From UHGV virus genome UHGV-1352914: a DNA stretch of 64,000 nt; one strand, 5' to 3'. Below, piece by piece: positions 13,219 to 55,593 of this stretch. The stretch's first letter is position 1. Each line of letters starts with the position of its first letter. This stretch comes from a virus. The position numbers and the translations under genes were made by a program. The notes beneath the pieces were generated by a model. It ran no database searches. It was not told where the DNA came from and saw nothing but the letters and a program-made list of their open reading frames with translations.

Positions 13219-13247
13219 TTGACTAGTAGGGGTTTATCCAGTATAGT
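13219..13247 (+). promoter_or_regulatory. sigma70-like promoter TTGACT-N17-TATAGT, -10 ends ~6 nt before the ATG (leaderless)
   Basis: Seen in sequence; ATG of next gene at 13253. Confidence 0.5.
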
Positions 13248-13252
13248 CTGTC

Positions 13253-13765
13253 ATGCAGATATTAGGTTGTGACCCCGGAACCCACGGAGCACTCGTACTC
13301 GCGGACACCCGGACTAAAAAAATCTGGATAAAACACATGCCAGAGGACGAAAGGGAATTGGAGGTAATCCTCAACAAACTGCCGAGTAGCCGTCGTATCA
13401 TGTACATTGAGAAGATGTCCTATGCCATGAGTGGCGGCGGCAAGGTGTCCAATCCGAGAAGTAGCGGCATCCTTGGCGAAGCCACCGGGAAGGTCCTCGG
13501 CTATGCCGCGGCGGCGGGGTACAATATTACACGAGTCCCCCCTGTCGTATGGATGCGGGCTATGGGTGCGTATGATACGGGACTAACCGCAAGGGACCGC
13601 ACGCGGTGGAAGAATAACTTGAAGCGCATCGCAATGGAGAACTTCCCCAATGCGAAGGTGACATTGCAGAACGCTGACGCTCTTCTCATACTACTGTATG
13701 CCTACCGGGAACTGAACAACGACCACACATTAACTCTCGATAGCTGGGACATAGAAAGACTATAA
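13253..13765 (+). CDS. RuvC-like Holliday junction resolvase
   Basis: N-terminal 'ILGCDPGTHGALVLAD' and C-terminal 'NADALLILLYAY' match RuvC catalytic signatures. Confidence 0.7.
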   Translation: MQILGCDPGTHGALVLADTRTKKIWIKHMPEDERELEVILNKLPSSRRIMYIEKMSYAMSGGGKVSNPRSSGILGEATGKVLGYAAAAGYNITRVPPVVWMRAMGAYDTGLTARDRTRWKNNLKRIAMENFPNAKVTLQNADALLILLYAYRELNNDHTLTLDSWDIERL

Positions 13766-13771
13766 CCTATT

Positions 13772-15607
13772 ATGGCACGCCATTTCACGAGATACGGACG
13801 ACAGTGGGAGTACGGGGTATCAGAGCTTGACATTGAACTCTGGTGCTTCAAATACGCATGGCCGGAAGAGAAGGGAGGGCTGGGCAGATACGGCCACGCC
13901 AAGAACGCCATCAACCTCCTGTGGAACTACAAGGGCAGTCCCACCCCCATCGTCTGGACCCCGTGGCTTGAACGCATGATAGAAACGGCGTGCAAGTATG
14001 ATGTGGTCATCATGGGAGGCGGCTCCTCGTCTGGGAAGTCCTTCTCTATGGCTATCATGGCGACGCTCTTCTATCTGGCCGACCCGGTCGATACCCTTTG
14101 CCTCGTCACGTCGACTACCATCGAGGGTGCGAAGAAACGTATCTTCAAGGACATTAAACGACTGTGGCGCAAGGAGTTCCCCGGCAAGCTCGTTGACGGT
14201 AAGGGACAGATTAAAGGCGTGAACGAGAACGGAGGCATTGACGATTCCCGCGGCATCTCTATTATCCCCTGCGCGAACGTCGGCGACCCCAGCAGTCGCT
14301 TTATCGGTATTAAGGCAAAGAACATGCACGTCTTTTACGATGAACTTTCCGAACTGCCAATGGAACTCGTCGAGGTGTGGCGCACCAACCTTATTACCAA
14401 CAGAGCGGACACCCCTCCGACCTTGATGGCCGCGTCCAACCCCAAGAGCCGTACCGATGCCTTCGGTGTGATGGCTATGCCCAAGAATGGGTGGAACAGC
14501 GTTGACATCTTTGAGGAACACGAATGGGAGACCAAGGACGGGATTTACATCCGCTTCGACAACCTCCAAAACCCTCGCATCAAATATGGTCGCGAAGACT
14601 GGAGCTTCTATACGCCGTTGGACATTGTTCAGCAAACGGTTGAACAGTACGGGGAGAATAGCCCGTTCGTGATGCGATTCCACCGGGCCACCTTTTCAGA
14701 TGATGCGGAAGAAGGTTCGCTAATGTCGGAAGCTGAAATTTACGGCAGTGGCGCAGATGCCATGCCCGTCTGGGGAGACGGCGAGTTGATTACCATCGCG
14801 GGATTGGACCCGGCCTATACCAACGGCGGCGACCAGTCATGCTTGAAGCTCGCCAAAGTTGGAAGGACTGTCGAGGGCCTCTGGGCTTGTGCAGTCTTCC
14901 GTACCTATCTGTTGAAGTCTACGTCCGACAAGGAACGGATGAAGCAAAGGAACTTCGACATCGCCCAGCAAGTCGGAGAGATTCTCCGCGCGAACAATGT
15001 CGATAGCAAGTACCTTGCGGTTGACGTAACCGGGGGTACTGGTTTCATCGACATCCTCGCCCAACATGTCGGTACGGACTTCCAGACGGTCAGCTTCGCG
15101 GGTATGGCGAGCAAAGTGCCTATCGGTCTGTTGCAGAATCAGGAGGCATGCCAGCAGTATAGCAACAAGGTCTCCGAGCTTTGGGGTTGTATGAAACTGG
15201 CCATCAACGCTCGCCAACTCTACGGCCTTGACCCGACAACTATCGTCGAGCTTAAATCCCGGCTCTACACCATGAACGGAACCCGAATTGCCGTGGAACC
15301 CAAGGTAGCCATGAAGAAACGGATTCATAAATCCCCGGACAACGCGGACGCCCTAGCTCTACTGGTTCACGTATGCCGGGGAATCATGGGACCAGAGTTC
15401 GGTAAGATTAGGCTTGACATTCAGAATCATAAGGTGGTAGAACATCAAGAGGTAATCAAATATCGCGAAGATGGAACCGCATATATTGAATCCGCGGACA
15501 TTGGCAGATACCTCGGAGGGTTTACCCATGACGGCAACGCCTCCGCTCCTGCTCGCGACACCTTTGCTTCCGATGTATCCACCGCAATGCAAACTCTTTG
15601 GAACTAA
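13772..15607 (+). CDS. Terminase large subunit
   Basis: Walker A 'GGGSSSGKSF', Walker B 'VFYDE', nuclease-domain Asp motifs 'IAGLDPAY' and 'SPDNADALAL'. Confidence 0.85.
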   Translation: MARHFTRYGRQWEYGVSELDIELWCFKYAWPEEKGGLGRYGHAKNAINLLWNYKGSPTPIVWTPWLERMIETACKYDVVIMGGGSSSGKSFSMAIMATLFYLADPVDTLCLVTSTTIEGAKKRIFKDIKRLWRKEFPGKLVDGKGQIKGVNENGGIDDSRGISIIPCANVGDPSSRFIGIKAKNMHVFYDELSELPMELVEVWRTNLITNRADTPPTLMAASNPKSRTDAFGVMAMPKNGWNSVDIFEEHEWETKDGIYIRFDNLQNPRIKYGREDWSFYTPLDIVQQTVEQYGENSPFVMRFHRATFSDDAEEGSLMSEAEIYGSGADAMPVWGDGELITIAGLDPAYTNGGDQSCLKLAKVGRTVEGLWACAVFRTYLLKSTSDKERMKQRNFDIAQQVGEILRANNVDSKYLAVDVTGGTGFIDILAQHVGTDFQTVSFAGMASKVPIGLLQNQEACQQYSNKVSELWGCMKLAINARQLYGLDPTTIVELKSRLYTMNGTRIAVEPKVAMKKRIHKSPDNADALALLVHVCRGIMGPEFGKIRLDIQNHKVVEHQEVIKYREDGTAYIESADIGRYLGGFTHDGNASAPARDTFASDVSTAMQTLWN

Positions 15608-16260
15608 TGCAATTACGAGCCGCCGCAAAGATAGCCGCCCCCAAACCAGTCACGAATGAAAACACTGTCATTAGGAAGGCCATTGAGATGTATAAGGCAG
15701 GGACACCCGTGCCTGTCATCTCCGAGGTAACTGGCCTCCCCCGTGAACGGGTTGATAAGATTGTCGATAGCGTCCAACTCTCGAAGGAGGAACTGGCTAT
15801 CCGCAATGAACTTCTCAATACGTACACGCAGAACACACAGGCCCGCATCCTCCAACGCCAAGAGGCGAGGACGAAGATAGAGCTTGACATTGTCGAATCC
15901 ATGAGCAATCAGTACAAAGAACTGATGAACAAAGGGTTCTCCCGTGTCGCTTCCTTTATGGCTGATGCAGAGATACAATCGATAAAGGATGTCCCTCTCT
16001 TCCTCTCTATCATGGAGCGAAGCCACGGCCTGTGGGAGAGGTTTAACGAAGCGATTGCGAAGCGTGACATGGACCTCTTGTCACAGGTTATCCAGCAGTT
16101 CGAATTGGAACAAACCGAGCTAGTGACGCAGATGGGATTGCAGGGAGGTCCTATTACGCTGAATAAGGATGGCACTCGCCCCGAACTGGAAGAGGGAAGT
16201 GCGGCCAGAACCATCACCTTGAAGCTCAAGAAGAAGGGCGAAAAGCCTGAAGCTGACTAA
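15598..16260 (+). CDS. HTH-domain protein (possible terminase small subunit or regulator)
   Basis: N-terminal helix-turn-helix 'VISEVTGLPRERVDKIV', rest coiled-coil; overlaps TerL stop by 10 nt. Confidence 0.4.
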   Translation: MELMQLRAAAKIAAPKPVTNENTVIRKAIEMYKAGTPVPVISEVTGLPRERVDKIVDSVQLSKEELAIRNELLNTYTQNTQARILQRQEARTKIELDIVESMSNQYKELMNKGFSRVASFMADAEIQSIKDVPLFLSIMERSHGLWERFNEAIAKRDMDLLSQVIQQFELEQTELVTQMGLQGGPITLNKDGTRPELEEGSAARTITLKLKKKGEKPEAD

Positions 16261-16268
16261 AAATAACA

Positions 16269-16296
16269 TTGACAACGTCGTCCATTTGCGTATATT
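16269..16296 (+). promoter_or_regulatory. sigma70-like promoter TTGACA-N16-TATATT, leaderless geometry (ATG at 16303)
   Basis: Seen in sequence. Confidence 0.5.
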
Positions 16297-16302
16297 GAGG
16301 GC

Positions 16303-17061
16303 ATGGCTCAACCCGAATCAATCCAAGAGATATTCCGTCGTTGGACCCCGATAGCTCTCATGAATCTGCCGGAGGAAGTGAAGACCCCCGACACGTTCCC
16401 GGACTATATGGGGACGGACGATGACCCGCTACCTATTGGCTATAGTCGGGGGATTCTGACAGTCATTGGGTACTCTCATGATGTCCGATACCCCTATGTC
16501 GCACAATGCGCCTGTGGAAATGTGGTCACGATGAACTACAACCATTTAACGTGCAAGCAATACCATTGCGGATGCCTGACCCAAATCATGCGTTCGGCTT
16601 ATCTCATTCGCTTGCGCGTCGAGGCTATGCGCTCATGGTGGCAACAGGTTCCTATGTGGCTCGACGACCTTGACAAGCTTCGTGAACATGCGAAGAAGTA
16701 TAGGAAGAGACTCAAGAAAACGAGTAAGTACGACGCCAAACTCACACATGTCGAATACGCGGATGACCCGCTGACGTTTGACCGGGAGGTAGAGGCTTCG
16801 GTCCTTCCCGATAATCCGGACGTTTTCCTCTCCCTCGTGGCACCGTCAGAAGAATATAGCCAATTCCTGCGCGACATTGCCGAGAAGCTGACCAATGTGC
16901 ATAAACCGTGGTCCGCAATTCCTATGGCAAATGCGAGCGCGTATGCCAGTTACAAAAACGAACTGCCCGAATTTGACGCGGCTACCTTCATTAACTTCGT
17001 CAACTACCTTGCGGACGCGCAGGAGGACAAAAACCTGAAACCTACGGACTATGGCAATTAG
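16303..17061 (+). CDS. Hypothetical protein with Cys/His cluster
   Basis: 252 aa; 'CACGN...CKQYHCGC'. Confidence 0.5.
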   Translation: MAQPESIQEIFRRWTPIALMNLPEEVKTPDTFPDYMGTDDDPLPIGYSRGILTVIGYSHDVRYPYVAQCACGNVVTMNYNHLTCKQYHCGCLTQIMRSAYLIRLRVEAMRSWWQQVPMWLDDLDKLREHAKKYRKRLKKTSKYDAKLTHVEYADDPLTFDREVEASVLPDNPDVFLSLVAPSEEYSQFLRDIAEKLTNVHKPWSAIPMANASAYASYKNELPEFDAATFINFVNYLADAQEDKNLKPTDYGN

Positions 17062-22478: not shown

Positions 22479-22507
22479 TTGACATACACGTAATTATATG
22501 ACAATAA
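22479..22507 (+). promoter_or_regulatory. TTCTTGACA -35-like element upstream of MCP (weak -10)
   Basis: -35 matches family consensus; -10 poorly matched; long (~170 nt) leader to MCP ATG. Confidence 0.3.
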
Positions 22508-22680
22508 TGAGGCATCCGAAGCGGTGCTCCATTATTGCTTTCCCGCGAGCAAACCAAAACAAACCTTTATGCAGGCGTGAAAATTCTTGGTCCTGACCCT
22601 GCCATGACCGCGTAAGACCCCAAAACAAATTCGTCCAAAGAGTACTAGGCGTTGCAAATTAAACCAAATTTAATTTACAA

Positions 22681-25783: not shown

Positions 25784-25802
25784 CCAATAATTAAACCTTG
25801 AC

Positions 25803-25851
25803 GGGGCTGAACTCATGAGCTAAACTTCTATGGGTTCAGCCCCAAATTTTT
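25803..25851 (+). terminator. Hairpin (ggggctgaac/gttcagcccc) + AAATTTTT
   Basis: Seen in sequence. Confidence 0.55.
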
Positions 25852-28379: not shown

Positions 28380-28439
28380 TAATCATGAGTTTACTCGAAC
28401 TTCTCGACCTACTTGGCTGGAAGCGCAAGTAGCACATTT

Positions 28440-28472
28440 CCCCGGAGGGGTTATCCTCCGGGGATTTTTATT
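28440..28472 (+). terminator. Intrinsic terminator (ccccggagg/cctccgggg + ATTTTTATT)
   Basis: Seen in sequence. Confidence 0.6.
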
Positions 28473-28483: not shown

Positions 28484-28511
28484 TTGACAAGTAATAAAAT
28501 TCTGATAAGGT
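28484..28511 (+). promoter_or_regulatory. sigma70-like promoter TTGACA-N16-(TG)n-TAAGGT
   Basis: Seen in sequence. Confidence 0.4.
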
Positions 28512-28517
28512 GGTGGC

Positions 28518-29144
28518 ATGTCAGAGACATCAAACACCAAACAGAAGGACGGCCATAATGTTATTATGGTCGATAAGCAGAATGGATTAACCCTCGTTCT
28601 GGCCAGCCATAGGGTTCGCATTCCCAACGAGGAAATTAAAGGAAGGGTTGAAGACCTTGCGGTTATCGAGAACCCGTGCACCGTTACGACGAACCTTCCG
28701 GCTAAGAACGAATTCAGTTTTCGTGATGAATCCGTAGAAACATCGGAAGCAGTTGAGAAGGCATTCGACGACGCATGCCTAGAAGAAAACCAACTGTTCT
28801 GCCCTATCTGTGGAGGCCTACTAAGAGAAGAACATCGCGGCAACTACGTGTTCGTAGAGTGCATGAGTTGCTCGCTGGCCGTGCAGGGGAGTGATGACGA
28901 TGACCCGGAGACAGCCTGTGAAGAGGCATGGAGAGAGGCTCGATTCTTCCTCGACAGTTGTCCTCCGGTTCTGCGTCTTCAACCCGGCGATAAGTTGCAT
29001 TTTATCGACAGGCCTCTTAAATATCAGTATTACGCCGTAGTTACGGACGTTGATGTGAAGGATAGCTGGATAAGGACCGACAAGGGTTCATGTCGCCCTG
29101 ACGACGTGCTTAAATGGCCGTGGGAAATTAAACAAGCAGAATAA
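28518..29144 (+). CDS. Zinc-ribbon protein with Lar-like (restriction-alleviation family) domain
   Basis: 'CPICGGLLREEHRGNYVFVECMSCSLAV...DDDDPETACEEAWREAR' matches Lar-family pattern CPxCGG...y.VxC..C...eA..W..R. Confidence 0.5.
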   Translation: MSETSNTKQKDGHNVIMVDKQNGLTLVLASHRVRIPNEEIKGRVEDLAVIENPCTVTTNLPAKNEFSFRDESVETSEAVEKAFDDACLEENQLFCPICGGLLREEHRGNYVFVECMSCSLAVQGSDDDDPETACEEAWREARFFLDSCPPVLRLQPGDKLHFIDRPLKYQYYAVVTDVDVKDSWIRTDKGSCRPDDVLKWPWEIKQAE

Positions 29145-33976: not shown

Positions 33977-34026
33977 CAGGACAACTGGCTTATCGATTCC
34001 GTACATCGAAATGTCAGGACGTTAAA

Positions 34027-34136: not shown

Positions 34137-34164
34137 TTGACCAGAAGCTTTTCCTGTGTATGAT
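34137..34164 (+). promoter_or_regulatory. sigma70-like promoter TTGACC-N16-TATGAT, leaderless geometry (ATG at 34172)
   Basis: Seen in sequence; ORF-track start 34160 lies inside the -10 hexamer. Confidence 0.55.
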
Positions 34165-34171
34165 AGCGGGC

Positions 34172-34837
34172 ATGGACAACAACTTCCATTATATTATTAG
34201 CGCGTATAACCCTTCCCTCCATTGGCCGGAGAGGGAATCAAACCTAATCCACTACACGGTCAATTATCTTAAATCCCTGAACATTTCCGGCGAGAACGTT
34301 ACCGTCATGTCCGAGGACCTCGGCGTTCTCTCATGGGCCAGAGCGGAGGGGCTGAACGTGGCCCGTGTCCCTGACGCGCCTGACGAGGCTATCCTCTCCA
34401 TCGCCGCAGAGCATGCGGGAAAGAATATCATGGTGCTCGACACCCAATGCCCGGTACGCGAAGCGGACCTCCTTGACGTTATGGCCAGCCAAATTGTCAC
34501 CGAGAAGGATGTCATCTTCATCTCTGCCTACATGGGATTGAAGCGGACGAACGTCGAAGACTACCCAGAATGGACTGGCATCGTTGATGGTAGCGTGTGG
34601 GGGTTCCGGCACGATAGCGACCTTAAGGTCATTAAGAGGATGTGCAATACCTACCTCGTCTATCATGACGCGTTCGCTGGTCACTTCGGGGTGAGCCTCG
34701 ATTACCAGTACGATAAAGATGTACTGGACGTCGCCGTGAAACGCGGCTGGGAAAAGAACGCGAGCACCGCCCCCTGTTCTGCGGATTATCCCCGGCGCGT
34801 ACAAGTTATGGTTGACAAACCTAAACAAAATGTCTAA
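34172..34837 (+). CDS. Hypothetical protein (possibly nucleotidyl-/glycosyl-transferase-like)
   Basis: Start moved to ATG 34172 (MDNNFHY); alpha/beta composition; adjacent to GT2 gene. Confidence 0.4.
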   Translation: MDNNFHYIISAYNPSLHWPERESNLIHYTVNYLKSLNISGENVTVMSEDLGVLSWARAEGLNVARVPDAPDEAILSIAAEHAGKNIMVLDTQCPVREADLLDVMASQIVTEKDVIFISAYMGLKRTNVEDYPEWTGIVDGSVWGFRHDSDLKVIKRMCNTYLVYHDAFAGHFGVSLDYQYDKDVLDVAVKRGWEKNASTAPCSADYPRRVQVMVDKPKQNV

Positions 34838-37898: not shown

Positions 37899-38319
37899 GA
37901 CCAGATTTAAGTGCGGCGACGTTGTTCTTCGGATAGATACGGGGAGATGTGGCATGTGTGGGGATAGCATCCCAACAGGGTCTATCCTTCGGGTAGTGTC
38001 CGACGAGGATGTTGCTGGTGTCGTTCGTGTCCAATATCCCCAAGCGGATGATGAAGACGAAGAGATACAGGATGTTATGTGGTACGAAATCGACCACTTA
38101 CCCGCGAAAGCCAAGGTAGAAGAATTCTCGGATGCCGTGAGGGTGTCCATGAATGGGGACGCTATTGCCACCATTCTCACGGACATTGCCACCCCATTGG
38201 GCACTCTTCACTTCGAAAGCTGGGCCAGAGAAATTGCCCAGTCGATGGCGAACATTATTAACCTTCAAATCTCATTGGGGAAGCTAACCTCGGACGGAAT
38301 CAAAGTAGAAAAAAACTAA
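37873..38319 (+). CDS. Hypothetical protein
   Basis: 148 aa; 'G..VV.RID.GRCGMCG'. Confidence 0.45.
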   Translation: MKVGPGKVKTRFKCGDVVLRIDTGRCGMCGDSIPTGSILRVVSDEDVAGVVRVQYPQADDEDEEIQDVMWYEIDHLPAKAKVEEFSDAVRVSMNGDAIATILTDIATPLGTLHFESWAREIAQSMANIINLQISLGKLTSDGIKVEKN

Positions 38320-39083
38320 TGACAAGCAAAAACAAAATTAAGGAAATACAGAAGTGGGCGGGAACTACGCCCGACGGTATCCTTGGTGATAAGACCATTG
38401 ATGCTATATGGAAGAAGATACAACCGGAACCCACGGTTTCCGTGGGACCTATGGACGTCCCGGAAACCACGGGTTCCGTGGGTCCCGTGGAATCCCCGGC
38501 AGAGATTATCCGCAAAGGAATGGCCAAGAAGATTCTCAACATGGAGGACTACAAGATTACAGGTCCCGATTCTCTGCGCGTAACTCGCCTCCCCTCTGGT
38601 GACGGCGGTGGCAAGTGGGAGATTGCAGGTATCTGTGATGGGATTGAACCCAAGGAATTCAATCTAATCAAATCCATGATGGACCGGGGCGACAGGGATG
38701 CGGCATGGGAGGAATGCCTCCGCTATGTTCTCGCCAATACGGAACCGTTGGTTGCCAAGGGAGTTGCAGGATGCTACGCCATTGAGTTCATGCTTCGCGA
38801 CATGACCTTCAACATGGGTGTGGCGGGAACGACTAAGGTTGTCCAGCGCATGCTCGACATTGATATTGACGGCAAGTGGGGGAAAAATACCCAAGCCAAA
38901 TGGACGGACGCCATTCAATCATGGGAGGAAAGCGAAGTCCTCGATATGCTGGACCGCGCTTGTCGTGCCCGCTATTGCTCCATTGTAAGAGCCAATCCGG
39001 TGAAGGCGAAGTTTCTCTCCGGCTGGTCCAACCGATGCAATGCGCGACATGCTTACGCTCTTACTCTGTTGTCAAGGAAATAA
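38319..39083 (+). CDS. Endolysin-like protein with peptidoglycan-binding repeats
   Basis: 'WAGTTPDGILGDKTIDAIWK' and 'IDGKWGKNTQAKW' PG_binding-like repeats; linker 38420-38500 carries CCACGG palindromes. Confidence 0.5.
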   Translation: MTSKNKIKEIQKWAGTTPDGILGDKTIDAIWKKIQPEPTVSVGPMDVPETTGSVGPVESPAEIIRKGMAKKILNMEDYKITGPDSLRVTRLPSGDGGGKWEIAGICDGIEPKEFNLIKSMMDRGDRDAAWEECLRYVLANTEPLVAKGVAGCYAIEFMLRDMTFNMGVAGTTKVVQRMLDIDIDGKWGKNTQAKWTDAIQSWEESEVLDMLDRACRARYCSIVRANPVKAKFLSGWSNRCNARHAYALTLLSRK

Positions 39084-39096: not shown

Positions 39097-39125
39097 TTGA
39101 CCCGTTAAACCCCAAATGATAACAT
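39097..39125 (+). promoter_or_regulatory. sigma70-like promoter TTGACC-N17-TAACAT followed by 14-bp palindrome that includes the ATG
   Basis: Seen in sequence; palindrome aacatggcggcaagg/ccctgccgccatgtt 39121-39155. Confidence 0.5.
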
Positions 39126-39150
39126 GGCGGCAAGGTAATTCCCTGCCGCC

Positions 39151-39573
39151 ATGTTTAGATTCGTCGCACAGCTAAACACCATTGACGGTAACGTATGGAC
39201 TTTGTTTCTCACCCGTATCGTCGAGGAAATGTCTCCCGCATATCTCGTATTTGTGGGAGTTATTTACGTGGCAGTAAAGCTGGCGTATAAGTATCTCTCA
39301 AAAAAGATAGAGTTTAGTCTTGACAAGGAGAAGTCATTTCTCATACTATTGCAAGAGGCTCTAAGAGTTATATCCGAGTTGGATGAATCTCTAGACCAAT
39401 TACATGGAAAAATAGACAACCTACGAAGCGACCATGAAGAGATAATCGACCGCGCCTTCTGCGCTATCTCGCAACAAGATACACACCCCTCCGACAGAAA
39501 TGAAAATATTCAATCTGTTCCGAAAAAGCCACGAGCAGGAACAACTCGAAAACGAGTTGACCCAGAATCTTAA
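39151..39573 (+). CDS. TM + coiled-coil protein (holin/spanin-like)
   Basis: TM segment 'AYLVFVGVIYVAVKLAYKYL' then helical charged region; downstream of endolysin. Confidence 0.4.
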   Translation: MFRFVAQLNTIDGNVWTLFLTRIVEEMSPAYLVFVGVIYVAVKLAYKYLSKKIEFSLDKEKSFLILLQEALRVISELDESLDQLHGKIDNLRSDHEEIIDRAFCAISQQDTHPSDRNENIQSVPKKPRAGTTRKRVDPES

Positions 39574-44788: not shown

Positions 44789-44816
44789 TTGACCCTCGCC
44801 CCACTCATGATAGGAT
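44789..44816 (+). promoter_or_regulatory. sigma70-like promoter TTGACC-N16-TAGGAT nested in inverted repeat CCCCACTCATG...CATGAGTGGGG (44798-44842)
   Basis: Seen in sequence. Confidence 0.45.
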
Positions 44817-44868
44817 GTTGAAGACCCACATGAGTGGGGCAAACTTATTAGACTAACACTCAACAAAC

Positions 44869-47800
44869 ATGGCTATCGACTTTAGTACCGCCAATATGTC
44901 CGACTTCGCTCCGACGTCGGCAAGCAGTATCGCGCGTGAACAGCGAGCCGCAGAACGGCACGCCACGTGGCAAGAGACGCAAAAACAGAAACAGGAAGAC
45001 AGAGCACAGAAAGCACTGGACCGCGAGCAAAGGTTAGCGGAAAAGAAACAGACCCGCGCGGAGAAAGCCGCAGGAGCTACCGCGGAGTTTGATGACTATG
45101 TCTTTAAGTCCATTGATGACTTTCAGAAGAAACAGACTGAACAGGCAGACCGCGCACGTAACGTAGAATGGGAAACAAAAAGCCGCGCCCATACGGAACA
45201 AGGATGGAAAACCACCGCGGAAAAGGCTGACATTGATGTCTTGAACAAAGGAAACCGTGGGTTCACCTTTGAGGGAATCGACTACATGAAGGACTATGTA
45301 GACCGCGGAGAAGATGCGCTGGTTGATTTGAAGGCCGCCGCTCGTGGTGATAGTGACGCCATTAAAAAGCTTACGAATAACACGGGCATCGTCGCAGTCT
45401 CTTCCTCCGAACTTTCTCCCCAGCATCCCGCATTCTTATCCCGCTTTGGCTTCGGCATGGGAGAGGACGGGAACCCCGTCGTAACGGAAAAGTTCCTCGC
45501 CATTGCCGCAGACAGAAACCGTAACGCAAAGGCGGTGGCCAAATCCATCGCCAACACAATGGAGAAGGCCCGGAAGGATTACCTCAACTCGCATCTAGAT
45601 GTTGGTACAGGTAAACCTAAAGCAGAAGCCATCGAGACTGCACCCATTGCTTACACTGCGGAGGAAATAGAAAGCATCATCAATACGATTAGGCGCGAAG
45701 ACATTGACAACTATCGTGCCGCTAAGTCTCTCTATACTAAGCACCGAGCCGCTTCGACGGAGAACGTGCAGAAGAAAACCCCCAGCCAGACGAACGTGGG
45801 GGAGCTTGGCGTTGGCGAATTCTCTGATTCAGCACCTTCATTTACTGGGAATGTTTTTGCTGAACTCGCCAACCTCTCTAAGTCTCCCAGCAAAATGTTC
45901 CGGCTTGTCCGCGACTACGGGGATTACCTTTCCCGGAACGGTGATATCTATATCCCCGGGCATCAAACTTCAAAGAAAGAAAAACCTGTTGAGGATAGGA
46001 TTCGTGAACAGATAGAGGCGGCAGACAAAATCGTAAGACGGCTCGAAGAAGACTACACTGGCCTTCCCTACCTCGAACTTCGCGACGCGATTCTCAATCC
46101 GGAAGCCGCGGCCTCTACCCTTCTGTCTTTAGTCCCCAATGCTGACATGGACGCAATACGTGCAAGGGCCGAAGTTCTTGCCAAGGACCTTCGTCGCAAG
46201 AAGGACCGCCCCCTGACCTTCGAGACCGATGAACAGATTGGCATGAGTGAGGCTATACTGGAAGCCGTGGCTACAAGGTTTCCGGGGGTTCCCAAATCCA
46301 CCCTGTACCAAGCGGGAGTAACCAATCTGATTCAGGGTTATGTCGCCAAGGCTACGCCGAGAGGCACTCTCATGGATGCGGTCAATGGTGCAATGGCTAA
46401 CTACCGAAGCACGGCGGGACAAATTGCGGATGTGCTTACCTTCCAACCGGGAGATAGTGTGGGCAAGACCTCTGACCCATTGAGTACGATGGAATGGAGA
46501 AAGGGAACGAGGCGTGGCACATGGGAGTATGGCGTACCGGGGGGTCCCTCTTTTGATGTAGGTCCCGAACGGTTGAAGGAATACATGGCCCAGTACCATA
46601 TCGAAAGTACCCGCGACGCTCTCAACTCCCTCTCCCATGCCGCACGTATGGGTGACTTGGGCGTAGGCCGTGGCAGTCTCTTTGCGTACAATCCGCACAC
46701 CAAGGAAGTAGATACGAATGCCACTCTCGAACTGAACCCCAATGCTCTCTACGACAATAAGCTGATGGACAAGAGCATTGAGGCTCTCCGTGCTAGTGGC
46801 GCGGACGAAGGTCTCATCAATCGCACCATTGAGAAGTTCCAGAACCTCCGCACGAAATCCGCACAGGAACTTGTGAAGGACAACATTGCATTGGATGAAA
46901 CGCTGGGAACGCTCCGTGATACGTGGCTTGGTTCCGGTATGCGGTTCAACCCTGTCTGGACCGAAACCATGAAGCATCTGGACAAGTACCTTTCCTTCAA
47001 GAATTTTTACAACGAACAGAAGGAAGCGGGCAAGAGCGACGAGGACATTCTCTCCGCATGGCAGGAGAAAGGACAGGCTCACATCAATCCTATTCTCCGT
47101 GGGTTCCAGATAGGCACGCACAAGGCCATTGACCTTGGGACAGGGGCCGCCTATGGTGCTCTTCTCTTTGCGCAGAATGCAGTCGGCAGTCGTGCGGCGA
47201 TGGAACATACCCGCACCCTCTGGGACCAGCTGAACAAAAAACAGGAAGCGGAAGCTGAACTTGTTCGAGGCAATATCATTGCAGACTATACTGCGGAAAT
47301 CGCTAACCTCGGCTACCAAATGGTAGCAACCGCGGGGGCTGGTAAAATCGGTGGCCTTGCTGGCCGTGCATTGGAACGTACCGCTCTGACCAAGTTCGCG
47401 AGGGCAATGGCTAACGTCGCGGCGAGGCGGGCAGAAGCTCTTGTCCCTGCCGCCCGTCCGGGATTGGCGGGACGTTTGAGTGGAACTATTCAGCGCAACC
47501 TCAACAACCTTGCGGCGTTGAGCCTCGAACGGGCAGGAGCTGGTGCTGGGGTAAACCTTACCATCATCTCGCAGGTTGCACCGAATGCTTACTCCGACAT
47601 CTTCTATACCATTTATGACAGGGAGATGGAAGGGAAGGAAGCGACTGCCGAGAACACGAACCGGGCACAGAGCATTGCCAGCAGGCATGCCCTCTTTGGT
47701 GCGGCTCTGGTCTCCACTGGCAGTACGCTTATCAACAACCGCGCAGGTATGGATTCCTTCATGCGTAAGGTTGTTGGGGCTAAAAACCTTCGCGGCCAAT

Positions 47801-50800: not shown

Positions 50801-53800
50801 CCATCGCTCCTATGATTCAGGACATCTCTAGGGCACGGGCCGAAGCTAAACAAATCATCCGGGAAGCCAACGATGATTTCCATGCCGCAACAAAGAGGGC
50901 AGGTGTAACTCGTGCTGGCGTAACTACCCCTGCTGGTTCCGTGTGGCTGAAACGGGACAACGCTATCCTCGATGCACGCCGTCAGAAACAGGCAGAGTAT
51001 ATGGCTAAGCGGGATGCCGCGGAACAATGGCTTCTGTCACAGGGAGTTGTAGGCCAGCTGGTCCACAATGTCATCGCCGATTCCCGTAAAGAAATTGCCG
51101 CAACGCAAATCTCTATTGCCAAGCTCATTGGAGATAGCCGTATGGCTAACAACGCCGCGGAGATGAATTATCTTCATCGCACCTACATGGCCGTAGGTCG
51201 TCATGCCGGAGACTTCACCCGGACGATGAAGGACATCATTGCACACCCCAACGGAGAACTGGCGCAGAAATACGATGGCCTGACGAAGTTGTTGCAGGAA
51301 GCCGCAATCGCTCATGCCGAAGCGCACCAGACAGAGTTGTCCGAAAACATAAGCCAAGTGCTGGACAACATGCAGGCATTGGCCGCGCTCCATGACGAGT
51401 TGAAACTTCCGCTGGTGTCAGCTCCCACGGGAGCCTCTTCGAATTATAAACTCCTGTTCGAAGGTGTAGCCAAGAACTACAGGACCAGAGAAATTCTTGA
51501 CTTCATTCAGAACAACTTCGGCAGGGTTCAAATGCTTGCGGACCTGCGGGATGGCCACAACATCAGTGCCATGTATAATAAGGCCATGAGCATGATAGCA
51601 CAGGCTGACTATCGCACGAAGTCAAAGATGGCAGAGATGAAAGAAACTCTGGACATGAAAGCCAGAGATAGTTTCCTCGCCGATGTCTTCTCCAGCCTTC
51701 CGGGAAACACGATTGCCGACAAAATCGGCGGCCTTGAATCCCCGGCATCCGTGGCTTCCGAAGTGAACAAGGCCATCCCCACTATCCCGACTTCGGCCAT
51801 TGACCAGATATGGAACGCTCCGAATATGAATGCCGCAGAACGACTGGACAAGACGCTCAATCTTCTCCGTGGTCAGGCGGGCATTCTCATGGGGGCGAAC
51901 AATATGGGCAACGTCATCTCCGCTACCGACTTGAAAGTGTTGCAATATCCGGAACTCTCCCGTCTTGCGGTGAACGATGCCATGAAGGCCATTGACGAAG
52001 TGCTGACCAAGAAGAGGACGAATGAAGATGCGCTGGCCCAGCGGAAACGCTTGCCCGAATGGCAGAGGAAAGCTATGTATGAACTTAGTGACCTCACCAT
52101 TGGGGATGCCATTGGGACATTGCAGAATACCATATCCATGCAGTCGAAGATTGCCGTGAACCAGTTGCTTGCTGACGAGTACGCCACCGTGCTCAAGGCA
52201 CAGGGTGTAGTCGTACCCCCGGATTCCGCGAGCCGTACCCCTGATATGGTGGAAATCTCCTTGAAGAATACGAAGAATGCGTTGAACGGATTGTATGCCG
52301 ACAAGGATGTAGCCGATGCACTCTATCACATCTACAGGCCAAGCGACGACATCATGAACAGTCGGACGGACGACTATAAGAAGGTGCGCAAGTACTGGCA
52401 GAAGTCCGGCAAGGGTCAAGAATGGTGGAGTAAGGCGGGTGGCTTGGCTAACCTTTCTGTCTTAATAGCTAGTCCTAATTCCACGTTACGTAACTTATAT
52501 GGTACAGTAGCTCAAATGACCCATGCGGGTGCACTTCCATTCACGGGGAGTAAAGACATCGCAAACCTTGTCGGGGACTGGGTCCAGTTGCGTAAGTTGT
52601 GGTGGCTATCACAGGGCAAGGACCTTGGTTCACAGGCTTCCGCAGATAGACTGCTGGCCGCGGAAGACAGGTACAACGAGAAGATTCGCTACTGGCAAGA
52701 GCTTGGTCTGCTGGACGCAGGTCAAGGGGAGTTCCTGCGCAACGTCTGGAAGTCTGACGAGTTCAGTAAGATGGCAGGAGAATTTGAAGAAGTGAATGAA
52801 GATTCCTTCTTCAAACTCGCCGAAGCTCTGAACGAGAAACAGGAACGGACGAAGGGCGAGGTGGCTAAGGATGCCGCCAAGATGGCGGGCAAAGTCGTAG
52901 CATGGCCCGTCAAAACGATGGCCTTCGCCTATGGCTTGCCGGACGCGGCGGCCAAGATTGTTCTCTTCACTAACCAGAGAGCGATTGCCGATACCCAATT
53001 AAAGGTACAACTGGCACGGGCGAAAGGCAAGGCCAACCCCAATGCGCGGGACCAGATACTCCTTGACGCGAGCCAGACTGACCAGAGTTGGAATGCGTAT
53101 GTGGATAGGTATACTGCCCACATGGTGAAGAGCTTGCTCCCCACGGGTTCGCGTACTCCTTCGTGGGTGAAAACCCTGAATATAGTTGCGGCTCCGTTCT
53201 TCATGTTCCAGTACCATACCGCCCAGTCCGTAGTCTACAACCTTGGCCACGCCATAGGCGAAGGGGTAGACGGTGTGTGGGCTATCAATAACGGCATGAA
53301 GAAGGAGGGGGCTTACCTCTTGGGACGCGCTTTCGTTCGCATCGCTGGTTCCGTAGGAACTATTTCTGCAACCTCTGCGGTCTCTTCCTGGGTTGCCCGA
53401 CAGATTATCACCAGTGTCTTGGGAGATGACGATGACCGTAAAATCATTGACGACGCGGAAGTCATGAGGAAGCTGGCAGACAGTGGGCTAATTCCCGACT
53501 ATGATAAGTTCGGGGACTTGATTGGCATCATAGATATGAAGCGGCATGAGTTCGAGTATTTGAACCTTGAATACATGAACCCGTTCAAGACCATCAAGGT
53601 GTTAGCCAAAACCCTGCCCAGCCTCTTCATGGATATGGATGTGGACAAGTGGGGGATGAACAAGGTCGCCGAACTGAAAAACCTGCTGGAAAATACGGTG
53701 CTCGAAGAATCCCTCCTTCTGAACGCCGCTTCTGAATTGTTTAATGAGGAAGACTTCAATTACAAGCATAGCCTCTCAGGTGATGAAAGTGTCAACGTTC

Positions 53801-54534
53801 TCCCGGCAGTAGGCAACGCAATCCTGTTGGCCGCAGGACTGAACCCCTCGTTCGGCAGTGGACATACATGGCAAGTCCTTGAACGATTCGCGACGGTTGC
53901 CAATAAAAAGATTCCCTTCTACGGCTGGGCAGTCAAGTCAGGTAAACAAGCGTTTAGCGATACACCTGACATGAGTGGCGCGGCATACGGGTTACAGTCC
54001 TTGGGTGCGGGCCTCCGTCGTCCGAAGGATTTGACCGAAGCCCTTGCCGCCGGGTTAAAGAATGCCAACGCGGCGGTCACTAAGTCGAAGCGAATGAGCA
54101 TTCTGCGTCCGGACTTCTACAAGAGAATGGAATCCGGGATGGATGTGGAACTCATGGAAGCCGTGGAAACCGCGGATGCCGTGAAGAATTTCACCAAGCT
54201 AGTCAATAGTGTCCGGTTCGTTACGGAAATTACAAACATGCTTGACCCGTCCATCCGTTCGGAAGTTCTGGCCTCCGTGATTGAGAGTTCCGGTATGAGT
54301 GCCAAGACCTACGGCGCGGCCATGCAGGGCATCATGCCCTACGTCATTAGCCCGCAAGCAGGACGTGAAGCTATCGCGAAGCTCAACCGTGAATTGCAGA
54401 AGTCTAATACCACGGACGAGGGCAAACGCCTAATCGAAGAGCAGAAGCAACTCATTATCAACCTCATGCGGAAGGGTAGCATTCCGATTGATGGGGCATT
54501 GAGTACAGAGGAAATTCATAATCGGATGAAGTAG
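44869..54534 (+). CDS. Giant virion/ejection ('polyvalent'-type) protein, 3221 aa, with zincin-like HExxH motif
   Basis: Single uninterrupted ORF; mostly helical/low-complexity; 'GTVLHEAIHLIDRH' HExxH; linker repeats 'EPTATAEPTATAE'; no DxDGD RNAP motif seen. Confidence 0.75.
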   Translation: MAIDFSTANMSDFAPTSASSIAREQRAAERHATWQETQKQKQEDRAQKALDREQRLAEKKQTRAEKAAGATAEFDDYVFKSIDDFQKKQTEQADRARNVEWETKSRAHTEQGWKTTAEKADIDVLNKGNRGFTFEGIDYMKDYVDRGEDALVDLKAAARGDSDAIKKLTNNTGIVAVSSSELSPQHPAFLSRFGFGMGEDGNPVVTEKFLAIAADRNRNAKAVAKSIANTMEKARKDYLNSHLDVGTGKPKAEAIETAPIAYTAEEIESIINTIRREDIDNYRAAKSLYTKHRAASTENVQKKTPSQTNVGELGVGEFSDSAPSFTGNVFAELANLSKSPSKMFRLVRDYGDYLSRNGDIYIPGHQTSKKEKPVEDRIREQIEAADKIVRRLEEDYTGLPYLELRDAILNPEAAASTLLSLVPNADMDAIRARAEVLAKDLRRKKDRPLTFETDEQIGMSEAILEAVATRFPGVPKSTLYQAGVTNLIQGYVAKATPRGTLMDAVNGAMANYRSTAGQIADVLTFQPGDSVGKTSDPLSTMEWRKGTRRGTWEYGVPGGPSFDVGPERLKEYMAQYHIESTRDALNSLSHAARMGDLGVGRGSLFAYNPHTKEVDTNATLELNPNALYDNKLMDKSIEALRASGADEGLINRTIEKFQNLRTKSAQELVKDNIALDETLGTLRDTWLGSGMRFNPVWTETMKHLDKYLSFKNFYNEQKEAGKSDEDILSAWQEKGQAHINPILRGFQIGTHKAIDLGTGAAYGALLFAQNAVGSRAAMEHTRTLWDQLNKKQEAEAELVRGNIIADYTAEIANLGYQMVATAGAGKIGGLAGRALERTALTKFARAMANVAARRAEALVPAARPGLAGRLSGTIQRNLNNLAALSLERAGAGAGVNLTIISQVAPNAYSDIFYTIYDREMEGKEATAENTNRAQSIASRHALFGAALVSTGSTLINNRAGMDSFMRKVVGAKNLRGQSPVQTLEQKMARWRSKPWAEMNTKEKTFAVASYLYSTSMAAVEGATEELADEFQEWAFTELVKNGEISESSIATTDQVISGAIKTAFLGGIGGYVGSQLAGEGNIRFQTEAAPTLDVKDATSILPDITKDASNIIEETGKAITKDNVPESLVETGKRVIEIAGEKGDAAEVAREWVDKSIAHESLAVSDETRKAWVEGATRMGISNFTQFRNLVERASEIYTYEGSAAASSFMAEAINDLPNTLSFPNKENLDTMRTMLSEALDAMGDRVQVIEVDDDLSIITTGDEDLDAALHVINGLTEPTATTEPKESPTTAEPTATAEPTATAELTARKERDQAIAPVTNMVDTGVVTPEAVETVDTLDAAITSFDPNTGAWLSSGSPLDRGTKLVSLNEMTGINAPLVTSNTGETIVVSPHASMYNMGEGGTPSTKWGDRVSALNLPSDGTGVNAYGILSDLRVKASPAQAAAIDGVLRALHAAGLDVAIRATNAPANIASPASITYKNGTDGKLVGGVIDLYMDRDNVIESVTGTVLHEAIHLIDRHLRATNADYSQRMDKIRSAVAENYNQIIDSLTAMYEASVDINEMNAIAALASDLNYGLRGPDEFASVAFSNPVMNFMIAEVSGDNVTLTDLARYAEAAGGRRPVHVRLIEWLKDLIRDVRQTADDMDGTTAAKNAAEWDSYVDRVADITPGKWFDMPRTPSWKVDDTDYTMSREVDYFNPLAYETDMTQRLSFGLGAEIIGTNAGNWVTSVKNVWQGVSKGWDKAGINVKSEEQKLIVLEQMTNVNAAYERSIKRIGKIGDMLQRRADSLGWDATTRKKWSKSILDMSGNMDNDIDPETVARINAEAQAEVRQHEQTRDFRIALAKKTVTDAVNRHAEAVRLANSLALNSEGRLEINEMMRRIKDMSVKGYGAMLDKTVALPMLSQQIHNVLSDLGSRISATGDANLETTYFGLARDTQNYLADMINEVDSPFSMDELLDRWSNLRNDYLYAESTNHPAIAPMIQDISRARAEAKQIIREANDDFHAATKRAGVTRAGVTTPAGSVWLKRDNAILDARRQKQAEYMAKRDAAEQWLLSQGVVGQLVHNVIADSRKEIAATQISIAKLIGDSRMANNAAEMNYLHRTYMAVGRHAGDFTRTMKDIIAHPNGELAQKYDGLTKLLQEAAIAHAEAHQTELSENISQVLDNMQALAALHDELKLPLVSAPTGASSNYKLLFEGVAKNYRTREILDFIQNNFGRVQMLADLRDGHNISAMYNKAMSMIAQADYRTKSKMAEMKETLDMKARDSFLADVFSSLPGNTIADKIGGLESPASVASEVNKAIPTIPTSAIDQIWNAPNMNAAERLDKTLNLLRGQAGILMGANNMGNVISATDLKVLQYPELSRLAVNDAMKAIDEVLTKKRTNEDALAQRKRLPEWQRKAMYELSDLTIGDAIGTLQNTISMQSKIAVNQLLADEYATVLKAQGVVVPPDSASRTPDMVEISLKNTKNALNGLYADKDVADALYHIYRPSDDIMNSRTDDYKKVRKYWQKSGKGQEWWSKAGGLANLSVLIASPNSTLRNLYGTVAQMTHAGALPFTGSKDIANLVGDWVQLRKLWWLSQGKDLGSQASADRLLAAEDRYNEKIRYWQELGLLDAGQGEFLRNVWKSDEFSKMAGEFEEVNEDSFFKLAEALNEKQERTKGEVAKDAAKMAGKVVAWPVKTMAFAYGLPDAAAKIVLFTNQRAIADTQLKVQLARAKGKANPNARDQILLDASQTDQSWNAYVDRYTAHMVKSLLPTGSRTPSWVKTLNIVAAPFFMFQYHTAQSVVYNLGHAIGEGVDGVWAINNGMKKEGAYLLGRAFVRIAGSVGTISATSAVSSWVARQIITSVLGDDDDRKIIDDAEVMRKLADSGLIPDYDKFGDLIGIIDMKRHEFEYLNLEYMNPFKTIKVLAKTLPSLFMDMDVDKWGMNKVAELKNLLENTVLEESLLLNAASELFNEEDFNYKHSLSGDESVNVLPAVGNAILLAAGLNPSFGSGHTWQVLERFATVANKKIPFYGWAVKSGKQAFSDTPDMSGAAYGLQSLGAGLRRPKDLTEALAAGLKNANAAVTKSKRMSILRPDFYKRMESGMDVELMEAVETADAVKNFTKLVNSVRFVTEITNMLDPSIRSEVLASVIESSGMSAKTYGAAMQGIMPYVISPQAGREAIAKLNRELQKSNTTDEGKRLIEEQKQLIINLMRKGSIPIDGALSTEEIHNRMK

Positions 54535-54549
54535 CAAGGATTTATATCC

Positions 54550-54578
54550 TTGACCTTCGGGGGCATGGGAGATATACT
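54550..54578 (+). promoter_or_regulatory. sigma70-like promoter TTGACC-N17-TATACT flanked by inverted repeat gggcatgggaga/tctcctatgccc; leaderless geometry (ATG 54585)
   Basis: Seen in sequence. Confidence 0.5.
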
Positions 54579-54584
54579 TCTCCT

Positions 54585-55190
54585 ATGCCCTCTTTTCGTA
54601 TAGTCCCCAATCATGTTATGGTCACCCCTCCGGGTGGCTGGAAGTTTGTTGTCCCTGAATCCATGAGTGTCAGGCTCAAGGGAACCAAGGTTTCCGCGGG
54701 TTCACTGGAACAACTTCGCAAATCCGTTGCCCGTCTCTTCATGAATAATGGAGAACCCTTTCAGGTTGCGCTCTTTGAATCAGAACTCTGTTCCTCTCTT
54801 CCTCCCCAATACTGTACTACCTGCGGGGATAAGGGGATTGAATGGAGGGAGTATGAACCCATGAGTGCCAAGAAGATACTGGCCTTCTTTAGTACTATGG
54901 TTCTCTGGTATCGACGGGGGCACAGATTTGTAGACGAGGCAGAAGCCCGCCGCCGCTATGCTATCTGTTCCTCCTGTCCTTATGCTACCTCTACGCCCCC
55001 CCCGGATTTAGAGAAGCAAGGGTGCGCCACATGTGGAGCCGAAGGAGCTGGCCGCAAATTCCTCAAGGAAAAAATTTCCGGGCAAGCTGACCTGACCAAC
55101 GGGGAGGCTCCTCTCTATTGTACCTTATGCGGTTGCGACCTATCAGTAAAGGCTCACTTCGATATTGAATCTGACTGCTGGCTAAAATAG
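54585..55190 (+). CDS. Cys-rich putative zinc-binding protein
   Basis: 'CTTCGD...CSSC...CATCG...CTLCGC'. Confidence 0.5.
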   Translation: MPSFRIVPNHVMVTPPGGWKFVVPESMSVRLKGTKVSAGSLEQLRKSVARLFMNNGEPFQVALFESELCSSLPPQYCTTCGDKGIEWREYEPMSAKKILAFFSTMVLWYRRGHRFVDEAEARRRYAICSSCPYATSTPPPDLEKQGCATCGAEGAGRKFLKEKISGQADLTNGEAPLYCTLCGCDLSVKAHFDIESDCWLK

Positions 55191-55194
55191 CTCT

Positions 55195-55223
55195 TGACAT
55201 TATTTCAAGTTGGTACATACTTC
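55195..55223 (+). promoter_or_regulatory. sigma70-like promoter TTGACA-N17-ATACTT, ATG ~8 nt downstream
   Basis: Seen in sequence; my nt count is off by 1 relative to the ORF track here. Confidence 0.45.
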
Positions 55224-55230
55224 CCTCCGT

Positions 55231-55593
55231 ATGAAGAACCAAACCTTCACCGCAGAAGAAGCCAACAAGCTCCCCCTCCACCGGGGTTGCTCCGCATATA
55301 TTATCATACACAGTGGCGGCATGCCGACTGTCAGGTGCGTTGAGGTAAACAATGTCATCTACGAGGTCTTTACCCAGACTGTGCGGGTGGAATATATAAA
55401 CCACCATTTCCGTATCATGGATTCCGGTCTCCTTAATTTTGAGGTCTTCCTCACCTACAAGGATGCGGCCAAGCGTGCATGCAGGGATTACGAGCGGGCT
55501 ATTGAAGAAGCCGAAAGGGAACTCGCTAAGCGCAAGAAAAAGTTGGAAGAGCTACGCGCTGGTTTCAATACTGATGTTATCCCTGTCAAATAA
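55231..55593 (+). CDS. Hypothetical protein
   Basis: ORF-track start 55210 is non-ATG within promoter; internal Met (MKNQTF) preferred. Confidence 0.4.
   Translation: MKNQTFTAEEANKLPLHRGCSAYIIIHSGGMPTVRCVEVNNVIYEVFTQTVRVEYINHHFRIMDSGLLNFEVFLTYKDAAKRACRDYERAIEEAERELAKRKKKLEELRAGFNTDVIPVK

Follow-up and report, generated by a model that had tools for sequence, protein, structure and literature searches.

UHGV virus genome UHGV-1352914 was analysed as a stretch of 64,000 nucleotides (the window), a phage-like sequence of about 51% G+C and 49% A+T that carries a family of near-consensus sigma70-type promoters, several of them placed so close to an ATG that their transcripts would begin at or next to the start codon and would be translated as leaderless mRNAs. 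A long block of plus-strand genes, about 53 kb with only 3.7% intergenic sequence, extends from about 2445 to 55593 and is met by a convergent minus-strand block (55718 to 63785), while a repeat-rich non-coding region (1-2445) separates two divergent gene blocks. Identifiable genes include those for a VapE-like primase/helicase, a family A DNA polymerase, a helicase, a PD-(D/E)XK nuclease, a Holliday-junction resolvase, the large terminase, an endolysin with peptidoglycan-binding domains, ThyX and an NAD-dependent ligase, and for most of the window's proteins neither Pfam nor PHROG gives a match. Dozens of relatives, each 64-72 kb long, are present in IMG/VR, which come mostly from one large dataset, presumably a human-gut virus catalogue, plus HMP-numbered samples, and which form clades with protein identities to the window of about 65-99%, 45-82% and 47%, depending on the gene. 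Measured against these lengths the window is therefore short of a whole genome by about 6.5 kb and, as judged from its sequence, is otherwise most of an uncultured human-gut phage genome of about 70 kb. A megablast comparison of 7 kb with a phage collection gave no match, and the closest matches to the DNA polymerase, terminase and ligase are all less than 30% identical, so that no near cultured relative was found; nor did we find a description of this phage clade in the literature. Both a tRNA scan and an Rfam scan came back empty.

The promoter motif, TTGAC-N16/17-TAnnnT, occurs 23 times in the window, where about 3 matches are expected, and 20 of the 23 lie on the plus strand. With a 16-nt spacer (TTGAC-N-N16-TAnnnT) there are 15 matches versus 1.63 +/- 1.31 in shuffled sequence, and with a 17-nt spacer 8 versus 1.38 +/- 1.14, the null being 100 dinucleotide-preserving shuffles, none of which attained the count for either spacer. 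When the spacer was varied from 10 to 24 nt, the plus strand gave 12 matches at 16 and 8 at 17, with no other length exceeding 2, and the minus strand never gave more than 3. Within the plus-strand gene block, 10 of the 18 plus-strand matches begin in the intergenic 3.7% (binomial P = 1.5e-10), all of them co-oriented with the genes, and nearly all intergenic gaps of at least 40 nt in the block contain a match. Alignment of 15 sites yields the consensus AAAAA.tTC-TTGACA ... TGaTATAaT-G, with TTGAC exact in every site, TAnnnT in 12 (the remaining three having AATAAT, CATACT and TATAAA) and an extended -10 (TGn) in 8. An A-tract precedes the -35, and the UP-like region, taken as a 14-nt stretch that stops 6 nt short of the -35, is 69% A+T versus about 49% for the genome. 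A strict search of the window for TTGACA-N16-18-TATAAT was empty because no site is perfect at all 12 positions. From the strand and intergenic bias, the spacer optimum and the retention of the hexamers in diverged relatives despite spacer turnover (described below), we therefore regard the sites as promoters, and the same evidence supports the proposal of the initial annotation that they are of the sigma70 type, as would be read by a group 1 sigma factor.

Five of these promoters, here named by the first base of the -35 hexamer and all on the plus strand, have a geometry that would place the start of transcription on the start codon. At 13219 (13219..13255), TTGACT, a 17-nt spacer and TATAGT are followed after 5 nt (CTGTC) by ATG 13253, which opens the Holliday-junction resolvase gene, the first of a resolvase/terminase operon; immediately 5' of this promoter stands an intrinsic-terminator-like hairpin with a T-run (13176..13213), in which 12 pairs (hairpin 13176-13203) are followed by TCTTATTTTT. 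The promoter at 16269 (16269..16305) reads TTGACA-16-TATATT and is separated by 6 nt (GAGGGC) from ATG 16303, and that at 28484 (28484..28520) reads TTGACA-16-(TGa)TAAGGT with 6 nt (GGTGGC) before ATG 28518 and a terminator (28439-28464) directly on its 5' side. At 34137 (34137..34174), TTGACC-16-TATGAT is followed after 7 nt (AGCGGGC) by ATG 34172, and at 54550 (54550..54587), TTGACC-17-TATACT is followed after 6 nt by ATG 54585. A 17-bp hairpin of GGAACCCAC repeats that has no U-tract (33977-34136; fold z-score -4.55) lies 5' of the 34137 promoter, in a stretch that is rearranged among relatives. A sixth promoter, at 55194 (55194..55233), combines TTGACA-16-CATACT with a 9-nt gap to ATG 55231, and its gene would be near-leaderless rather than strictly leaderless, with a predicted leader of 2-3 nt. 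In five genes (13253, 16303, 28518, 34172 and 54585) the A of the ATG thus lies 6 to 8 bases past the -10, within the 6-9 bp at which a sigma70-type promoter is expected to initiate; in 55231 it lies 10 bases past, and all six genes have a pyrimidine at -1.

All twelve sites listed in the initial annotation, ten ahead of genes plus 1689 and 55597 ahead of non-coding units, are present, with two amendments: the site given as 55195 has its -35 at 55194, its -10 is CATACT and its gene starts at 55231 instead of 55232, and the site at 55597 has an 18-nt spacer and TATAAA. That listing omitted the promoters at 25798 (17-nt spacer, TAAACT), 22479 (18-nt spacer, AATAAT) and 1556, as well as the candidate at 2469. 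Five genes had been singled out as having a -10 that ends 5-8 nt before the ATG, which holds for 13253 (5), 16303 (6), 34172 (7) and 54585 (6) and fails for 55231 (9); conversely, 28518, with a gap of 6, had gone uncounted though its promoter at 28484 was listed.

The upstream DNA of related loci gives a view of which parts of this arrangement are maintained. For each promoter-proximal gene we anchored IMG/VR loci by protein and read the DNA upstream of the match. The 29 loci of the resolvase gene fall into five architectures, all with a 17-nt spacer, a 5-nt gap and ATG and with mutually unrelated spacers, as in TTGACC-TTCTGGACTTTGTGGGA-TATATT-CTCCT-ATG and TTGACC-CCCTCCTGTTTCTTCGG-TATATT-CCCGA-ATG. 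The 51 loci of gene 16303 represent twelve architectures in which the spacer sequence is replaced and yet always 16 nt long, with a gap of 6 or 7 nt and ATG, and all 19 loci of gene 28518 have a 16-nt spacer, a 6-nt gap and ATG. For gene 34172 (63 loci), 11 of 13 architectures show spacer 16, a gap of 6 or 7 and ATG, clades with a replaced spacer among them, and one clade carries new hexamer variants (TTGATA ... AATAAT). Among the 31 loci of gene 54585, a diverged clade has a spacer of 18 and a gap of 5, so that the -35 and the ATG stay equally far apart, and the -10 of the 54550 promoter is a perfect TATAAT in most relatives; for gene 55231, the gap is 7 nt in one relative. All related loci of these six genes start with ATG, never with GTG or TTG, and ATG and GTG vary among relatives of the leadered gene 39151; non-AUG start codons are poorly tolerated at the 5' end of an RNA. 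The combination of promoter and ATG recurs in the clade with about 47% amino acid identity and also in a relative with 33% identity in the DNA polymerase. For each of the six genes the spacer sequence has thus turned over among relatives, while both hexamers at their fixed spacing, a gap of 5-7 nt and the start codon ATG persist, footprints that support the view that the leaderless geometry itself is under selection.

The same comparisons bear on where the proteins begin. The resolvase aligns to PHROG 1770 from residue 1 (E = 2.9e-16) and has no in-frame start upstream, and its start is therefore not further downstream than 13253; a PDB sequence search with the resolvase found no match. In the relatives, protein similarity starts at the ATGs of the leaderless geometry. 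Starts that overlap promoters had been moved in the initial annotation, and the relatives bear this out. ATG 6266 is missing in one relative (L136), and in-frame ATG 6365 has the upstream context typical of the genome; downstream of TTG 12294 lies in-frame ATG 12357, again with typical context; and both ATG 34160, the longest-open-reading-frame start inside the -10, and TTG 55210, inside the spacer, are out of frame in relatives with another discriminator length. A further case may be the first plus-strand gene, where a candidate promoter at 2469 (2469..2507; TTGACA-17-TATCGT, then 7 nt) lies within the reading frame that starts at 2445 and just ahead of in-frame ATG 2505. This candidate is kept with a replaced spacer in three relatives (L029, L138 and L147), in which ATG 2445 is also kept; ATG 2505 may be the leaderless start of the gene in place of 2445.

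Genes of the window use no Shine-Dalgarno (SD) sequence, SD-like 4-mers being found upstream of 10 of 62 genes versus a background of 12.9 +/- 3.2. Instead, G falls to 5-18% upstream of genes and A peaks at -3, -6/-7 and -13/-14, a pattern resembling the Kozak-like one described upstream of genes in SD-less bacteria (Baez et al. 2019, PMC6847099). Genes with leaderless or near-leaderless geometry, six in all, depart from it: G makes up 0.36 of positions -7..-1 versus 0.10 in the other 58 genes (P = 0.005), and A makes up 0.20 of positions -15..-1 versus 0.42 (P = 0.0003), a deficit that arises partly by construction, as the -10 hexamer fills those positions. An A at -3 is found in none of the six and in 31 of the 58 (P = 0.015), and a pyrimidine at -1 in six of six and 42 of 58. 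Absence of an SD does not by itself discriminate between the two groups, since no gene of the window has one, whereas absence of the A-rich, G-poor signature is what would be expected if the DNA upstream of these six starts were not in the mRNA. The leaderless positioning put forward in the initial annotation is thus favoured by the conserved gap and ATG, by the absence of the upstream initiation signature and by the resolvase profile match from residue 1.

The remaining protein-gene promoters, also on the plus strand, would give conventional leaders. At 6252 (6252..6279), TTGACA-16-(TGc)TATATT is followed by a hairpin (6280-6311) and then by the likely start ATG 6365, and at 12254 (12254..12281), TTGACA-16-(TGa)TATGTT precedes the likely start ATG 12357. 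The promoter at 22479 (22479..22508; TTGACA-18-AATAAT) stands ahead of a gene for a 418-aa protein at 22681 with a predicted leader of about 165 nt. Shorter leaders are predicted at 25798 (25798..25851; TTGACG-17-TAAACT), with about 25 nt to ATG 25858, at 39097 (39097..39153; TTGACC-17-(TGa)TAACAT), with about 19 nt to ATG 39151, and at 44789 (44789..44871; TTGACC-16-(TGa)TAGGAT), with about 46 nt ahead of a gene for a 3221-aa protein.

These last three promoters, together with the leaderless-geometry promoter at 54550, are straddled by conserved hairpins, the 5' arm lying in the spacer/-10 region and the 3' arm in the transcript. Around the 25798 promoter, as read directly from the sequence, 25803-25812 pairs with 25834-25843 and is followed by AAATTTTT. 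The hairpin at 39123-39153 overlaps the -10 and the predicted start site of the 39097 promoter and ends in ATG 39151, and the 44789 promoter is embedded in a 12-bp hairpin (44798-44840) in which five of the twelve pairs show compensatory double changes. At 54559-54592, 3' of the gene for the 3221-aa protein, a conserved 13-bp hairpin with compensatory changes in two of its 13 pairs has the -10 hexamer of the 54550 promoter as its loop and ATG 54585 in its 3' arm, and is followed by TTTT (to 54600). Two of the four stems therefore end in or contain the downstream ATG (39151 and 54585). Because RNA that starts at the embedded promoter lacks the 5' arm, only RNA initiated upstream can form these stems.

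Which polymerase would read these promoters depends on the host, for which the endolysin provides the main clue. Its best and only strong phage match is to Akkermansia phage Chantilly (73% of the protein aligned at 43% identity, E = 4e-37), a phage in which SD sequences are likewise absent from most genes. An alignment-based scan of one genome each for 185,579 species located eight loci of this endolysin family, of which seven are on large contigs of Akkermansia (A. muciniphila, A. glycaniphila or Akkermansia sp.) and the eighth is on a 1.3-kb contig of a Bacteroides bin. Since the family is almost confined to Akkermansia genomes and one Akkermansia phage, Akkermansia is the most likely host on sequence grounds, and both the SD-scarce signature and the G+C content of about 51% are compatible with it; a bacterial genome scan with the window's DNA polymerase found no relative. 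The endolysin gene (38319-39083), like its counterparts at loci L156-L162, encodes an N-terminal PG_binding_1 match, an unassigned central region and then PG_binding_3. A. muciniphila is listed among SD-scarce species (PMC10783764), and Cappable-seq of the mouse gut (Ettwiller et al. 2016, PMC4782308) showed that its promoters have -35/-10 motifs and that about 10% of its start sites are leaderless, as compared with 0.4% for E. coli. A Bacteroidota host, which the absence of SD sequences and the A at -3 and -6 had suggested, was rejected, as no TAnnTTTG promoter site is present, TTGACA is conserved and the endolysin leads to Akkermansia. Promoters of Bacteroidota consist of TTTG at -33 and TAnnTTTG at -7, and TTGACA/TATAAT sites would not be recognised by their sigma factor.

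Pfam scans detected neither a sigma factor nor an RNA polymerase domain in open reading frames of at least about 95 aa, including the eight genes encoded, in relative L138, by the approximately 6.5 kb that lie outside the window. The relatives also show a probable early region beyond the window (L138:5896-9210 and L136:6529-11100), made up of small minus-strand genes that are each preceded by a strong, near-identical promoter and a leader hairpin. Its five or six sites read AAAAA-TTGACA-16-TGnTAAACT, in fuller form AAAAAcnat-TTGACA-agataagaaaatcTGc-TAAACT, and probably constitute the early promoter set of the phage. The presence of the same motif in this region argues that a pre-existing host holoenzyme reads it.

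We consider it likely that this promoter family is read by host RNA polymerase carrying the primary sigma factor and that five genes of what is likely an Akkermansia phage are made as leaderless mRNAs, an explanation that builds on the motif statistics, conservation, geometry and lack of SD sequences demonstrated above and on the host link given by the endolysin. Transcription of sites of the form AAAAA..tTC-TTGACa-N16/17-(TGn)TAtanT would start at 13219, 16269, 28484, 34137 and 54550 on the A of the ATG or a few bases away from it, at 55194 just far enough upstream to leave the very short leader given above, and at 6252, 12254, 22479, 25798, 39097 and 44789 so as to give leaders of about 19-165 nt. 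Downstream cistrons would follow closely, only a few nucleotides apart, each with an A-rich, G-poor initiation region of the kind that the first cistrons of several modules would lack altogether, and modules would be insulated either by terminators 5' of the -35 (13176-13203 and 28439-28464) or by the promoter-straddling hairpins. Several points weigh against this explanation. DNA geometry is the source of all that is said about the RNA, be it where transcripts start, which sigma factor is used, whether translation is leaderless or what the hairpins do, and the host assignment stands on one protein family together with sequence signatures. Eight of the motif matches are inside coding sequence, so some may not be promoters; the A of ATG 13253 comes as early as the 6th base past the -10, a position used by a minority of starts in E. 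coli; and the 55194 site has a 9-nt gap and a weak -10 (CATACT). No terminator precedes 16303 or 55231, and the hairpin ahead of 34172 lacks a U-tract, which would permit translation of these genes from read-through RNA. Finally, most of the phage's proteins have no detectable homologues, making an unrecognisable phage transcription factor conceivable.

Read-through is also the basis of an alternative in which the promoters are real and the adjacent genes are nevertheless expressed mainly from polycistronic RNA, by termination-reinitiation or SD-independent internal initiation, with the leaderless RNAs minor or poorly translated. Genes 16303 and 55231 begin 43 and 41 nt, respectively, past the upstream stop codon with no terminator between, and SD-independent initiation at tight junctions occurs genome-wide, both as this alternative would have it. 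Yet terminators or hairpins precede or enclose the promoters at 13219, 28484 and 54550, AUG 54585 would sit in a 13-bp stem on any read-through RNA, the six genes lack the A-rich, G-poor region apparently needed for internal initiation, and the strict conservation of gap and ATG would otherwise be hard to explain; we thus regard predominant expression from read-through RNA as unlikely. A variable gap of 5-9 nt, the extreme being that of 55231, could also mean that the transcripts are near-leaderless, with leaders of 1-5 nt, and that the host polymerase uses a shorter distance from -10 to start than that of E. coli. An A of the ATG that lies 6-8 bases past the -10 and follows a pyrimidine is, however, in the canonical start context, which makes such a systematic offset rather improbable, and it would in any case only refine the leaderless explanation, since very short leaders act functionally like leaderless mRNAs.

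The enzyme itself could in principle be the phage's own, if the sites were read by a phage-encoded sigma factor or polymerase too diverged to recognise. The large share of proteins without Pfam or PHROG match leaves room for one, and the translation-initiation signature first pointed to Bacteroidota, whose sigma factor would not fit the motif. On the other side, the motif has all the hallmarks of group 1 sigma70 promoters (the -35, the 16-17 nt spacer, TGn, the -10 and the upstream A-tract), recognisable sigma70 regions 2 and 4 would be expected and none were found, the early region uses the same motif, implying that the enzyme pre-exists in the host, the 3221-aa protein has no DxDGD motif, and Akkermansia, the inferred host, has -35/-10 promoters. 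These observations render a phage-encoded enzyme very unlikely. That the matches are chance occurrences or palindromic operator sites, as might be suspected from the eight matches in coding sequence and from the overlap of several sites with inverted repeats, can hardly be reconciled with the excess over shuffles, the spacer optimum and the strand and intergenic bias; moreover, the inverted repeats change sequence yet keep their pairing, as befits an RNA structure rather than a protein-binding site, and the hexamers are conserved independently of the repeats. We accordingly give this last idea next to no weight.

With leaderless expression from host-read promoters as the preferred explanation, the four promoter-enclosing hairpins (at 25798, 39097, 44789 and 54550) could tentatively be seen as a compact insulation device, a proposal based on their placement and pairing that we hold to be possible and rather doubtful. 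Read-through RNA would fold the full stem and terminate, with the AUG buried at 39151 and 54585, while RNA from the embedded promoter would escape the stem and be translated, at 54585 as a leaderless mRNA, so that the first gene of each module would be expressed only from its own promoter. If this were true, insulation together with a possible phage-induced shift toward leaderless translation, as reported for Thermus phage phiYS40, would amount to a timing mechanism suited to an SD-less host.

Two further promoters and one promoter-like site on the plus strand precede stretches that do not code for protein. TTGACT-16-(TGa)TAGTAT followed by a terminator at 1621-1659 (unit 1556..1668) could specify a small RNA of about 75 nt, and TTGACA-16-(TGg)TATAGT followed by a terminator at 1755-1787 (unit 1689..1795) a second one. 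The two units stand in tandem, are about 70-75 nt long, contain no open reading frame, have related 3' hairpins (repeat family D6) and no Rfam match, and are candidates for phage small RNAs; the body of the first (1593-1670) retains 97% identity even in a clade with DNA polymerases that are only about 80% identical (82% in relative L023). Between the convergent gene blocks, a promoter-like TTGACA-18-(TGg)TATAAA is followed by a terminator with a strong hairpin at 55678-55716 (55597..55716), and this stretch may give a short non-coding transcript or act as a bidirectional terminator only.

The region 1-2445, which holds the two tandem units, is likely an origin or control region. Its repeats comprise an 85-nt direct repeat (906-990 and 1386-1470), five 25-nt repeats of the TACCGATTCCG type (410-607) and a 34-nt repeat (768-801 and 859-892), and its counterpart in relatives (L138:5300-5990) holds several differing short tandem arrays. 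On the minus strand, at 62013-63813, a 36-nt motif (TAGAAnC..CACATAGCCCTACAAAATTATT, with ATG directly after it) precedes five consecutive small genes and differs from the TTGACA/TATAAT sites. The 3221-aa protein served by the 44789 promoter (44869-54534, plus strand) has no Pfam or PHROG match and carries a HEAIH zincin-like motif near residue 1511 and a PT-rich linker near residue 1285. A virion RNA polymerase of the N4-like or crAss-like kind was considered for it and rejected for want of both a Pfam/PHROG match and a DxDGD motif, and the protein is probably a giant virion or ejection protein rather than a polymerase.

Middle and late promoters of Thermus phage phiYS40 are not known to have a -35 element, unlike the promoters here, which have a full TTGACA and belong to a phage with an inferred host from another phylum. 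In work by Sevostyanova et al. (2007) that PMC3594737 and PMC12340547 cite, most middle and late transcripts of phiYS40 are leaderless. The phage is reported to shift IF2/IF3 levels. Like phiYS40 as so described, the phage studied here is of a lytic type and would make many leaderless mRNAs from host-polymerase promoters that abut the ATG, in the present case as a prediction. In Deinococcus-Thermus, the "-10 region adjacent to ORF" pattern, in which a -10 alone suffices (PMC12340547), shares with the present sites a TAnnnT a few bases before the ATG that drives leaderless genes, and differs in that the -35, the spacer length and often TGn are conserved here. The leaderless mRNA of lambda PRM-cI, described in PMC12340547 after Shean and Gottesman 1992, likewise comes from a sigma70 promoter that starts at the A of the AUG, in that case a single regulatory gene in an SD-using host and here a genome-wide design in a non-SD host. 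In Bacteroidota (PMC6847099), as in the leadered genes of the window, A is found at -3 and -6 with an A-tract near -13 and G is depleted. Most Bacteroidota transcripts are leadered, and the window differs further in its TTGACA/TATAAT sites and in the endolysin link to Akkermansia. A. muciniphila transcripts (PMC4782308, PMC10783764) share with the phage the -35/-10 elements, a pyrimidine-purine start context, a substantial share of starts on the codon itself (predicted in the case of the phage) and an almost complete lack of SD sequences. The bacterium's share of leaderless start sites, about 10%, was measured, and the phage's, about 5-6 of 13 protein-gene promoters, is predicted from sequence; the phage sites are also much nearer to consensus.

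Leaderless expression from a -10 that abuts the reading frame is thus already well documented, and the phage offers a clean further example and no new principle. It is the first case known to us for an Akkermansia-linked phage clade, with a predicted leaderless share that is unusually high and with full -35/-10 elements. Akkermansia is a much-studied gut bacterium for which few phages and little of the grammar of gene expression have been described, and of the results added here, those of most use are the hairpins that enclose promoters and the assignment to a likely host. The predictions are given at single-nucleotide resolution, the start codons are corrected for a poorly annotated phage group in which longest-reading-frame calls overlap promoters, and the endolysin family could serve as a host marker for gut virome contigs. 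The compact near-consensus promoters and natural leaderless cassettes of the clade could serve as genetic parts for an SD-scarce organism. More broadly, the phage illustrates how gene expression may be organised without SD sequences, with first cistrons that would be leaderless and downstream cistrons set tightly behind A-rich junctions.

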